Below are positions 5,751-19,870 of a stretch of DNA of 31,624 bases, piece by piece. The position numbers and the translations under genes are program-made. Below the pieces are notes generated by a model. The model searched no databases. It was not told where the DNA came from and saw only the letters and a list, made by a program, of their open reading frames with translations. Location: assembly GCF_003334765.1 (NCBI RefSeq), contig NZ_QOWT01000039.1; one strand, written 5' to 3'. The stretch is from Escherichia coli (GTDB taxonomy: Bacteria > Pseudomonadota > Gammaproteobacteria > Enterobacterales > Enterobacteriaceae). Each line of letters starts with the position of its first letter. The first letter of the stretch is position 1.

Positions 5751-5849
5751 GCCGGATGCGGCGTGAACGCCTTATCCGGCCTACAAAAACATGCAAATTC
5801 AATAGATTGCAGAGATTATGTAGGCCTGATAAGCGTAGCGCATCAGGCA
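5751..5849. repeat. BIME / RIP-type element: two inverted REP sequences around a central spacer
   Basis: REP gccggatgcggcgtgaacgccttatccggcctaca (5751-5785) and inverted REP tgtaggcctgataagcgtagcgcatcaggca (5819-5849). Spacer contains ttcaatagattg, resembling an IHF site. Confidence 0.8.
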
Positions 5850-14603: not shown

Positions 14604-14687
14604 GTTAGATGATGGCTATCTCACTCCAGTCAGAGCCACCAACTCAGGGCTGGAAAGTAAAAAACCGACGCAAAGTCGGTTTTTTTA
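14604..14687 (+). ncRNA. agrA: AgrA small RNA (DinQ-associated antisense-type sRNA, paralog of AgrB)
   Basis: Putative promoter TTGCAA (14569-14574), 17 nt, TAGCAT. Ends at hairpin ccgacgcaaagtcgg plus T7 (14665-14687). Near-duplicate of the agrB module. 5' end is approximate. Confidence 0.7.
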
Positions 14688-14834
14688 CATCCGGATTCGG
14701 ACAAGGCTTAATATGACGATGACCCAGTGAAAGTATATAAATCGTCACTGCGATATATACCGAAGTGCTCCCTCCGCCAGCTGAAGAAATCGCTAATTCT
14801 TGCAATGTTAGCCACTGGCTAATAGTATTGAGCT

Positions 14835-14917
14835 GTTAGATAAGAACTCTCTCACTCCAGCCAGAGCCACCAACTCAGGGCTGGAAAGTAAAAAACCGAC
14901 GCAAAGTCGGTTTTTTT
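14835..14917 (+). ncRNA. agrB: AgrB small RNA (antitoxin sRNA complementary to the dinQ mRNA leader)
   Basis: Promoter TTGCAA (14800-14805), 17 nt, TAGTAT (14823-14828). Body tgttagataagaactctctcactccagccagagcc is near-identical to + strand 14403-14437 inside the dinQ transcript region, so it is complementary to dinQ mRNA. Ends at hairpin plus T7 (14895-14917). 5' end is approximate. Confidence 0.75.
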
Positions 14918-14999
14918 ACGTCCTGATTCAGACCTCCTTTCAAATGAATAGCCAACTCAAAATTCACACCTATTACCTTCCTCTGCACTTACACATTCG

Positions 15000-17204: not shown

Positions 17205-17253
17205 AGCGGCGATATCCCCCCCACAGGTTGTTAGAAAAGTGCGCTTTATTTAT

Positions 17254-17354
17254 GTCGGATGCGACGCTGGCGCGTCTTATCCGACCTACAAAGTTATGAA
17301 AATTCGATGAATAGTATGTTATTTGTAGGCCTGACAGGCGTAGCGCATCAGGCG
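17254..17354. repeat. BIME / RIP-type element (two inverted REPs) downstream of arsC
   Basis: REP gtcggatgcgacgctggcgcgtcttatccgacctaca (17254-17290) and inverted REP tgtaggcctgacaggcgtagcgcatcaggcg (17324-17354). Spacer resembles that of the 5751-5849 element. Confidence 0.8.
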
Positions 17355-17832
17355 ATTTTGCTATTTACACAGTACTCCCTGCGTGAGATTCCAATTATCG
17401 CGTCCAGCATGGTGTATCAGTGAGCTGCTTAGTTATCAGCGATACAGCGCAGTAGTTTAAAGACGTACTGGATTATGATTTATCAGTGGTTTACACAACA
17501 AATTATTAAATAATTATAAGATACCTTAACCCATTTTATTATTACACATCTAAAACATCACAAAAAAAATCACTTCACACACTATCAGAGAACATAATAA
17601 CTTTTTAAAATGAGCGCATTTTGATAGTTGTTAACGATTTCCTTTACGATACTATCACTACCCTTTTTTTACACACAAATATTACCGGGTGGAGATAAAA
17701 GGGAAATCAAAGGTAATTATATCAGGAAGATATAACGCATTACATTTATTGTGTGTAGAAGAAAATCCATTCCTGTTCTAATTATCCAATTTAAACATCT
17801 TAGCATAAAACAAATGATGAATAAGGAATTTT

Positions 17833-19056
17833 ATGTCAATTGACTTTACCCCAGGTATAATAAATACATATCACGGCGATATTTATAACTGCACAACAAA
17901 TACCGATAATGCTAAAACGCCAGACACACCGAAGTGGCCTTGCGATAATTGGGAAGAACAACAACCCATTAATTCCACATTCTCTGGAGAAGGATATATC
18001 TCTGATCAATATGATTTAGCGCAACACCAACTTCAACAAATTAATGCGTGCCACACGAACACTACATATACAAATGCAGACTACTCAAAAGTTGTGGCTC
18101 AACTTGTAAGTCTTATTACTAACATTGAAACGATAAGTTCGACACAACTTACGCAACAGACACAATCAATACTTAATCAGATTAATAACATTAGATATGA
18201 AAAAAACAAAAGTGCTGAATGTCGAATCATTGTTATCGCTAATCCTAAACCCGACAAGGCAATCATAACTAAAATTAGCGTAGAAGAGGGAATACCCATA
18301 ACATTCAGTGTCCAAACCATGTTTTCAGATACTAATTTTATTGCTGAACAACGAGCTGACTTACCAACTAATATAAAAGATATTCAAAGCCTGTATCAAA
18401 AAATGACGAAGTTATATATTGAGCACAGTGAAAATAAAAACAGGATGAAAGTCTTTGCCGGAACCAACTTTATTGATTTCAATATGACAGGACAGAACCT
18501 GTCCGGGTTCGTTCTAACCTTGTCAAGGTTTTATTTCGAAGATCTACTTAATATAAATTTCACTGACGCAAATTTAGGTGACACTATTTTTTTACATAAA
18601 GAACACCCTACCCCCAAATTATATAAAGATGGACAATATCTTGACAAACAAATCGAAGGTTTATTTTCAACATTATTAACCATTAATGACAACCTTTTAC
18701 GAGCAAAAGCGGAAATTGCTTCGACAATAATTAAATTTTTAGAGGCCAGGATAACCAATCTTTCATACAATGACATATTAAAATATCAGCAAGAATTCCA
18801 AAAACAATGTTATAAGCAAGTTAAAGCCTTTACGACACTCTCCCGATACAATAAAATTCAAACATGGGCAGAAATGTCTGAATATCAATTCGAAGTATTT
18901 CAATACGAGACGCTTAACCCAAAAAAAATGTCACACACGCCTTATTTAAAGAGGCCACTGCCTAATGAAAAAGATATAAATTATGGGGTGGAAATAGAAA
19001 TACCATCTGGTAAAAGAATTCGCTTATCAAATCATTACCAGAATATAATACCATAA
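17833..19056 (+). CDS. yhiS: Uncharacterised AT-rich protein YhiS, uninterrupted 407 aa, with a pentapeptide-repeat-like central segment
   Basis: ORF 17833..19056 with AAGGAA SD. Lies between arsC and slp as yhiS does in E. coli. Markedly AT-rich, N/Q/T-rich protein. No IS sequence interrupts it here. Confidence 0.8.
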
Positions 19057-19303
19057 TATTGATTATTAGCACTTTATAATCATTGAATAAAAATAGATTT
19101 TATGTACTTTTAAAACAATGCACTATATTATGGGGTGATGGATATTCATGTCACGCCCCAAAATTAACTGAGTTCACCTAAACAGAAAGGATATAAACAT
19201 CAGACAGGTTTACGTTACTATCAGGCATATCACCTCAGAATCAGATGAAAACTATAAAGAAATATCTATTATGGTTTTAATATTTGTTGATAAGGATAGT
19301 AAC

Positions 19304-19870
19304 ATGAACATGACAAAAGGTGCACTCATCCTCAGCCTTTCATTTTTGCTTGCCGCATGTAGTTCAATTCCGCAAAATATCAAAGGCAATAACCAACCTG
19401 ATATTCAAAAAAGTTTTGTTGCTGTTCATAACCAGCCGGGGTTATATGTTGGTCAACAAGCGCGCTTTGGTGGGAAGGTTATCAACGTTATCAATGGCAA
19501 AACGGATACGTTGTTAGAAATCGCTGTATTACCGTTGGATAGCTATGCGAAGCCTGATATTGAAGCCAACTATCAGGGCCGACTGCTCGCCAGACAAAGC
19601 GGCTTCCTTGATCCAGTGAACTATCGTAATCACTTTGTTACCATCCTCGGCACCATTCAGGGTGAACAACCTGGCTTTATCAATAAAGTCCCGTATAACT
19701 TCCTGGAAGTGAATATGCAGGGCATCCAGGTGTGGCATTTGAGAGAAGTGGTTAATACCACCTATAACCTGTGGGATTACGGCTATGGTGCATTCTGGCC
19801 GGAACCGGGCTGGGGTGCGCCTTACTACACCAATGCGGTGAGTCAGGTAACACCTGAGCTGGTCAAATAA
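19304..19870 (+). CDS. slp: Outer-membrane starvation lipoprotein Slp, 188 aa
   Basis: ORF-track frame 19271..19870. ATG at 19304 with AAGGA SD gives 188 aa. Lipoprotein signal with lipobox LLAAC. Confidence 0.92.
   Translation: MNMTKGALILSLSFLLAACSSIPQNIKGNNQPDIQKSFVAVHNQPGLYVGQQARFGGKVINVINGKTDTLLEIAVLPLDSYAKPDIEANYQGRLLARQSGFLDPVNYRNHFVTILGTIQGEQPGFINKVPYNFLEVNMQGIQVWHLREVVNTTYNLWDYGYGAFWPEPGWGAPYYTNAVSQVTPELVK

Follow-up and report, generated by a model that had tools for sequence, protein, structure and literature searches.

An intact yhiS allele of Escherichia coli with a short, divergent pentapeptide-repeat-like core

Here we analyse yhiS, an uncharacterised gene on a 31,624-nucleotide stretch of Escherichia coli DNA (assembly GCF_003334765.1, contig NZ_QOWT01000039.1; this whole stretch is called the window, and positions are counted from its first letter). 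The window carries an uninterrupted 407-codon frame which is the intact ortholog of the gene that IS5 splits in E. coli K-12. From the profile comparisons, we read residues ~208–255 of its product as a true pentapeptide-repeat module, albeit a short and divergent one. Taken together, we consider it probable that intact yhiS is a real but dispensable accessory gene of E. coli and Shigella that evolves fast, and not a new system, encoding a soluble protein of 407 amino acids with such a module. The gene, its disruption in K-12 and this allele are already on record. As the gene and the insertion are catalogued and the intact allele is common, the finding as first noted from the letters of the window alone (the sequence-only reading) adds little. 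New, if modest, are the pentapeptide assignment at the level of sequence profiles and the description of the locus as hypervariable and prone to loss at homopolymers.

Orthology to K-12 yhiS and the empty IS5 site

The gene, its putative ribosome-binding site and the position at which K-12 carries the insertion are located as follows:

17833..19056, plus strand: uninterrupted coding sequence of yhiS with an ATG start, 407 codons and a stop (from the list of open reading frames, the identity to K-12 and the name in UniRef)
17823..17827, plus strand: Shine-Dalgarno-like AAGGA, separated from the ATG by 5 nt (seen in the sequence itself)
18575..18578, no strand assigned: empty IS5 target TTAG (CTAA on the other strand), a single copy at codons 248–249 (from the alignment of the window with the K-12 junctions)

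A region of ~2 kb was compared against 5426 complete E. coli genomes and found a match in 5418 of them, which was chromosomal in every case. In K-12 MG1655, IS5 splits the matching region, and the two halves are annotated as the pseudogene fragments yhiS-1 and yhiS-2. They lie with IS5 between arsR-arsB-arsC and slp-dctR-yhiD-hdeBA. The open reading frames of the window follow the same order (arsR-arsB-arsC, yhiS, slp-dctR-yhiD-hdeB-hdeA), so that yhiS sits at the left margin of the acid fitness island. The MG1655 element is 1195 bp long and flanked by a 4-bp TTAG duplication; its junctions read ...AAATTTAG followed directly by GGAAGGTGCG... on one side and ...CGCACCTTCC followed directly by TTAGGTGAC... 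on the other. The target of IS5 has been reported as CTAA/CTAG (PMC11677980), and TTAG is the complement of CTAA. The empty site of the window falls inside the pentapeptide-like stretch.

With IS5 left out, the K-12 sequence aligns with the window over 1279 and 727 nt at 100 % and 99.86 % identity, respectively (99.9 % overall). Besides IS5, a single nucleotide at position 18803 differs, exchanging K for R, so that the reconstructed K-12 protein departs from that of the window in one residue. Moreover, the exact protein of the window carries the name YhiS in UniRef. K-12 yhiS hence resembles the gene studied here in its slot between arsC and slp and in nearly all of its DNA, and differs from it in the insertion at codons 248–249, whereas the frame of the window runs on without interruption. 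The identification as yhiS made in the sequence-only reading is borne out by this synteny, by the nucleotide identity and by the UniRef name. That reading had also stated that IS5 disrupts the K-12 gene. This is correct, as shown by the single TTAG in the window, by the insertion with its duplication in K-12 and by the literature, in which K-12 yhiS (b3504, P37635) is an uncharacterised pseudogene disrupted by an IS (PMC8170033).

Separately, a preprint reports a spontaneous 16.4-kb deletion from yhiM to yhiS in a K-12 derivative, for which its authors invoke a transposable element (bioRxiv 10.1101/2023.11.30.569415). The IS5 copy in K-12 yhiS (locus L001, 4280–5473) may possibly be implicated in this deletion.

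The frame itself has the marks of a coding sequence. A stop-free frame of 407 codons arose in 0 of 5000 sequence shuffles, and an open frame of this length in such AT-rich DNA is therefore not due to chance. The alleles examined share the N-terminus MSIDFTPG, of which 2 of 16 have a D4Y/G8C variant. GC content is 0.31–0.34 across 17501–19500 vs 0.47–0.56 in arsB/arsC. For yhiS itself it amounts to 0.338, and both its GC content at third codon positions (GC3, 0.299) and its local codon-adaptation score (0.455, with the GC-normal genes of the window as reference) are the lowest in the window, the former among 24 genes. The length and integrity of the frame and its AT-richness relative to the neighbouring genes, both put forward in the sequence-only reading, are thus confirmed. 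Other AT-rich troughs occur in the window, namely an open reading frame at 50–1036 on the minus strand (GC 0.35) and the segment 23001–24000 upstream of and within gadE (GC 0.33–0.34). yhiS is therefore not the sole low-GC element of this neighbourhood.

The pentapeptide-repeat-like core

18454..18612, plus strand: pentapeptide-repeat-like core, residues 208–260, with the best register comprising nine units at residues 211–255

The sequence-only reading had pointed to a five-residue periodicity in residues 208–253, and the stretch does read as quoted there. We scored the register over eight consecutive units against a consensus set a priori, [small][D/N][L/F/M/I]xx (maximum score 24), and compared it with composition-preserving shuffles. 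The observed score of 17 contrasts with 11.0 ± 1.0 in the shuffles, and 0 of 2000 shuffles reached 17, showing that the register is non-random. Where at least ~8 tandem A(D/N)LXX units were looked for, nine were found. At the centre, 9/9 units have F, L or M; one position earlier (i-1), 6/9 have D or N, and a small residue occupies position i-2 in 4/9.

Searches against other proteins lead to the same family. An exhaustive phmmer search over 1.84 billion representatives returned one full-length cluster, fragments of the same family and a single weak match confined to the repeats. This protein, P0161, is the only match that is not YhiS (E 6.4e-4, YhiS residues 192–254); it is metagenomic and carries the Pfam domains PF00805, PF13599 and PF13576. 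A profile built from 16 YhiS alleles was searched against all PDB sequences (E <= 10) and matched two chains only, both of them pentapeptide-repeat proteins aligned in register at positions 202–253: Rfr32 (2f3l, E 0.0064) and the thylakoid protein TL15 (3n90, E 0.19). In hhalign, the allele profile scored 92.8 % against P0161 (E 3.9e-7, residues 208–260) and 90.5 % against a 21-member pentapeptide profile (E 1.4e-6, residues 216–253), while 30 column-shuffled profiles used as controls reached a maximum of 0.7 %.

Several observations count against a pentapeptide-repeat module. No Pfam pentapeptide model matches the protein of the window (E <= 10) or any of the 16 alleles (E <= 0.1). AlphaFold2 returned models without a beta-helix, although their confidence is too low to be decisive, with a pLDDT of 36.5 for the full-length protein and of 50.3 for a crop of residues 186–272. 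Both models are partly helical over the core at unusable confidence, and the full-length input was the 16-allele alignment, which is shallow and covers one genus. Furthermore, position i-2 fits the consensus in fewer than half of the units, and nine units would be a very short helix. Two other Pfam matches, AIPR_N (E 0.42) and DUF5894 (E 0.04), were treated as noise.

The silence of the Pfam models and the helical, low-confidence predictions would also fit a reading in which an AT-rich codon bias, by favouring N, F, I, L and K, produces the resemblance as a side effect, and in which there is no beta-helix; the protein is indeed rich in I, T, N and L. We regard this reading as unlikely. The shuffle controls contradict it, as neither the composition-preserving shuffles nor the column-shuffled profiles reached the observed values. 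Likewise, the uniform occupancy of the central position and the fact that the only PDB chains matched are pentapeptide-repeat proteins in register argue against a compositional artefact. Of the beta-helix proposed in the sequence-only reading, the part that stands is the similarity of sequence profiles seen with hhalign, the PDB profile search and phmmer; no Pfam pentapeptide family matches, and the AlphaFold2 models, which lack a beta-helix, are too low in confidence to count against one. An otherwise unannotated E. coli 'y-gene' thereby gains a domain-level hint, a short divergent pentapeptide module that Pfam misses.

If folded canonically, the module would make about 2.25 turns, and its roughly nine units may thus form some two turns of a right-handed four-sided beta-helix. 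By analogy with pentapeptide-repeat proteins, such a helix might provide a rigid binding surface between the N-terminal part and a helical C-terminal part of YhiS. Outside the core, the protein has no significant match in Pfam, NCBIfam, PADLOC, PHROGs or the PDB sequences, and 0 defence families of PADLOC-DB 2.0 were matched at E <= 1. It contains no hydrophobic segment (maximum Kyte-Doolittle value 0.90), no transmembrane segment, no signal peptide and no lipobox, from which we predict that YhiS is soluble. The N-terminal ~55 residues are polar, with an abundance of T, N, P and D.

Distribution, allele divergence and recurrent loss

yhiS is taxonomically restricted to E. coli and Shigella: all 136 relatives with a name among 5.8 billion proteins belong to one or the other. 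A tblastn search against phages returned no yhiS relative. Against plasmids, three matches were rejected, as they are mislabelled chromosomes of 4.8–4.9 Mb (PLSDB NZ_CP141089.1, NZ_CP134663.1 and NZ_OL790696.1). In species-representative genomes, a peptide-pattern scan confirmed nothing, and a scan with the allele-invariant 18-mer TTCACTGACGCAAATTTA gave three matches in unrelated genera, which we attributed to chance. Since both scans missed E. coli itself, they are weak evidence for the absence of yhiS from other Escherichia species.

In K-12, the spacer between arsC and yhiS is listed as an H-NS-bound 'promoter island' (PMC3661553, table), and binding of StpA/H-NS at yhiS has been reported (bioRxiv 10.64898/2026.02.10.705075). 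H-NS may accordingly silence yhiS in the strain of the window as well. The horizontal origin suggested in the sequence-only reading is compatible with this binding and with the base composition, but neither a donor nor a relative on plasmids or phages turned up. That reading had moreover contrasted the intact gene of this strain with K-12. An intact copy is not special to this strain, as the exact YhiS protein of the window is present on at least 1000 contigs.

The locus is unusually polymorphic. The features that bear on its divergence and loss are:

18206..18955, plus strand: hypervariable mosaic block of ~750 bp, codons ~125–375, with 72–86 % identity to strain ET846
18587..18593, plus strand: T7 homopolymer, the main frameshift hot spot, codons 252–254; loss of one T leads to a stop at codon 282
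18611..18615, plus strand: C5 tract with a frame-restoring +1 in L014
18921..18928, plus strand: A8 homopolymer, the second frameshift site, codon 363; -1 in O157:H7 NE92

Within E. coli, the protein identity of full-length YhiS alleles goes down to 64 %, and intact alleles diverge by up to 22 % in DNA, in a neighbourhood that is nearly identical. ET846 matches the window at 100 % identity in arsC, slp and dctR but at only 86.7 % in yhiS. Downstream of the hypervariable block, identity to ET846 is 96–100 % from 18956 and 100 % from about 19006; this pattern is a recombination mosaic inside yhiS. Divergence is greatest for the allele P0115 (locus L010), which lies in the same slot and shows 77.8 % identity in yhiS, 99.3 % in slp and 95 % in arsB. 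Mosaic alleles were also noted at loci L003, L007 and L008 in addition to L010.

We estimated dN/dS between intact alleles by the Nei-Gojobori method. With dN of 0.10–0.20 and dS of 0.20–0.61, the ratio is 0.26–0.49, and neutrality is rejected in every allele pair (P 5e-4 to 1.6e-15). In the flanking genes slp, dctR and arsC, dS is 0–0.03 in pairs among the window, strain 41 and ET846 and 0.02–0.16 in comparisons with N4220121, with dN/dS of 0–0.18 throughout. Intact alleles have 407–410 codons, and their net length differences are multiples of three. The better-conserved parts of the protein are the repeat module, residues 276–300 and the C-terminal tail, the latter two at 90–94 %. Hence, weak purifying selection has acted on yhiS as a coding sequence. 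Positive selection was considered and rejected: the highest local dN/dS (residues 126–175, about 1.0–1.4) rests on ~25 non-synonymous vs 5.5–7 synonymous changes and matches neutrality.

The frame is nevertheless often lost. Among 30 genomes sampled at even steps down the ranking of matches, ~9 have yhiS intact (7 confirmed through annotation or 100 % identity, 2 inferred), and ~21, roughly 70 %, carry a broken gene (15 verified, the other 6 inferred because they are nearly identical to verified cases). Intact copies are therefore the minority state, though far from rare. The lesions comprise IS5 in K-12 types, IS1 in EC102 and NH-21, IS1 together with a near-total deletion in SCU-172, and a deletion in AREA_R505 that leaves nt 1–379. 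Slippage in the T7 tract adds to these. T7A has become T6A in eight of the sampled strains (L006, L009, L015–L019 and L014), and T6C has become T5C on a different allele background in O157:H7 NE92. In L014, the loss in the T-run is followed by the compensating +1 in the C5 tract and then by a further -1. Slippage at A8 probably accounts for the truncated class of 371 amino acids ending in ...PKKCHARLI (P0045, P0046, P0053 and P0058). The exact 70-mer with the T6 frameshift occurs in 1112 of 5426 genomes, and the T7 71-mer of the window is found at >=99 % in 1360 genomes, a count that includes IS5-split K-12 derivatives. Phase variation at T7 was considered, but seven residues make a short tract by the standards of classic phase variation.

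A present-day role of the gene is weakened by several of these results and by the literature. Given that ~70 % of the sampled copies are broken and that residues ~126–175 show a dN/dS of ~1, the intact copy may have little or no function today. In K-12, neither deletion of yhiS nor a plasmid carrying it affected the minimal inhibitory concentration of chlorhexidine (PMC8170033), and yhiS expression was unchanged under YdeO overexpression. No functional study of yhiS came up in literature searches on the gene, on b3504 and on EspX/pentapeptide effectors. As to the functional protein that, according to the sequence-only reading, this strain may retain, the purifying selection between intact alleles speaks for it and the inactivation in most of the sampled genomes against it.

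Pushed further, the same results would describe a functionless relic, that is, a gene in decay that has kept an open frame in this lineage by accident alone. The frequency of broken copies with at least six independent kinds of lesion, the T6 frameshift with its more than a thousand genomes, the lack of a reported phenotype and a dN/dS of 0.4–0.5, several-fold above that of the neighbours and close to 1 in residues 126–175, all fit such a relic. Decay sits less well with a dN/dS significantly <1 in every allele pair, with intact alleles that keep their length despite the divergence of their DNA, with the conservation of residues 276–300 and of the C-terminal tail and with an identical intact protein on so many contigs. 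Moreover, a synonymous divergence at least 10-fold above that of the flanks is not explained by simple decay. We consider a relic possible but doubtful.

A different alternative takes the divergence itself as the signal. YhiS might engage an evolving partner of phage, host or competitor origin, either as an effector-like protein (compare PipB2, SopA and NleL/EspX) or as a stand-alone defence protein; this seems quite improbable to us. In one form of this idea, a cytoplasmic or non-classically secreted protein would engage its target through a minimal pentapeptide beta-helix, and balancing or diversifying selection would maintain the alleles, which we deem no less improbable. It would further have yhiS switched off recurrently where it is costly, often by slippage at T7, a scenario to which we give an equally slim chance. 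A synonymous divergence of 0.2–0.6 between alleles with identical or near-identical flanks, sharply bounded recombination blocks, recurrent loss, the narrow taxonomic range of an AT-rich, H-NS-bound gene and a polar N-terminus rich in T, N and P without a Sec signal are all in line with a role in conflict. On the other side, no part of the gene has a dN/dS significantly >1, YhiS matches no PADLOC or PHROG family and shows no similarity to effector structures in the PDB at E <= 10, and no secretion or defence genes neighbour it in the window or at the K-12 locus.

We therefore keep to the accessory gene as the preferred reading and picture its history as follows. yhiS marks the left end of the acid fitness island, and the AT-rich DNA in which it sits is bound by H-NS/StpA in K-12. 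It would be a mosaic of old recombining allele lineages that has been lost repeatedly across the species, formerly constrained, as the dN/dS below 1 suggests, and by now presumably dispensable in most lineages. With its many independent inactivations, yhiS could serve as a handy natural example of how lineage-restricted genes bound by H-NS come to be retained or discarded, and, judging from its sequence, it may be a candidate for host or phage interaction screens.

Surroundings of yhiS and comparison with known systems

17480..17832, no strand assigned: AT-rich region upstream of yhiS, GC 0.31
17417..17483, no strand assigned: indel point, given by alignment breakpoints, where the arsC–yhiS interval of other strains additionally contains genes for an ArsR/SmtB regulator and a permease

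Upstream of yhiS there are several promoter-like hexamer pairs, but their number (14 vs 9.7 ± 2.9 in shuffles) is not clearly above expectation. Rfam detects no RNA family at yhiS, and a terminator scan was negative for the interval from yhiS to slp. Just past arsC and right before the AT-rich block, GC-rich imperfect palindromes resembling REP/BIME elements lie at 17240–17360.

The island is structurally variable on both sides of the gene. An ArsR/SmtB-family regulator and a permease lie between arsC and yhiS in many strains (L003 1835–3239, L007 1832–3236, L008 1787–3215, L009 1823–3239 and L005 1424–2852), and neither is present in the window or in K-12. The second large structural polymorphism follows dctR (window position ~20557), where the window continues with yhiD-hdeBA and other loci carry the heme-uptake genes chuS-chuA directly after dctR (L002, L004, L005, L008 and L010, including O157:H7).

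Rfam also places several RNAs elsewhere in the window. The AgrB antisense RNA family (RF02891) is represented by tandem copies at 14605–14688 and 14836–14919 on the plus strand (106 and 108 bits), both in the spacer between gor and arsR and adjoining the dinQ toxin locus. GadY lies at 30204–30317 (plus strand, 150 bits), the small RNA ES205 at 24354–24425 (plus strand, 105 bits), just 3' of gadE, and ES036/CssrF at 5787–5827 (plus strand, 42 bits).

Among known systems, the DNA mimics Qnr, MfpA and AlbG share the pentapeptide motif with YhiS. They are proteins of ~200 amino acids which consist nearly entirely of repeats and form long dimeric rods, whereas only 45–53 of the 407 residues of YhiS are repeat-like; repeats spanning nearly the whole protein, as in the Qnr/MfpA type, are not present. 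The type III effectors PipB2 and SopA of Salmonella and NleL/EspX of E. coli are, like yhiS, enterobacterial, AT-rich and lineage-restricted, and combine a pentapeptide beta-helix with unrelated flanking domains (see also PMC3013003). With the allele profile, no PDB chain of PipB2, SopA or NleL/EspX was matched at E <= 10, and Pfam shows no HECT-like or other effector domain in the protein of the window or the 16 alleles. The polar N-terminus without a Sec signal is compatible with type III secretion but not diagnostic of it.

Typical pentapeptide-repeat proteins have 20–40 or more units, which fill most of the protein, whereas YhiS has ~9 units in 45 of 407 residues and stays below the Pfam thresholds. 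With these proteins (PF00805, PF13599 and PF13576, as well as Rfr32, TL15 and P0161), YhiS nonetheless has in common the tandem five-residue unit with F, L or M at its centre and D or N before it, and the similarity of sequence profiles extends over residues ~202–260.

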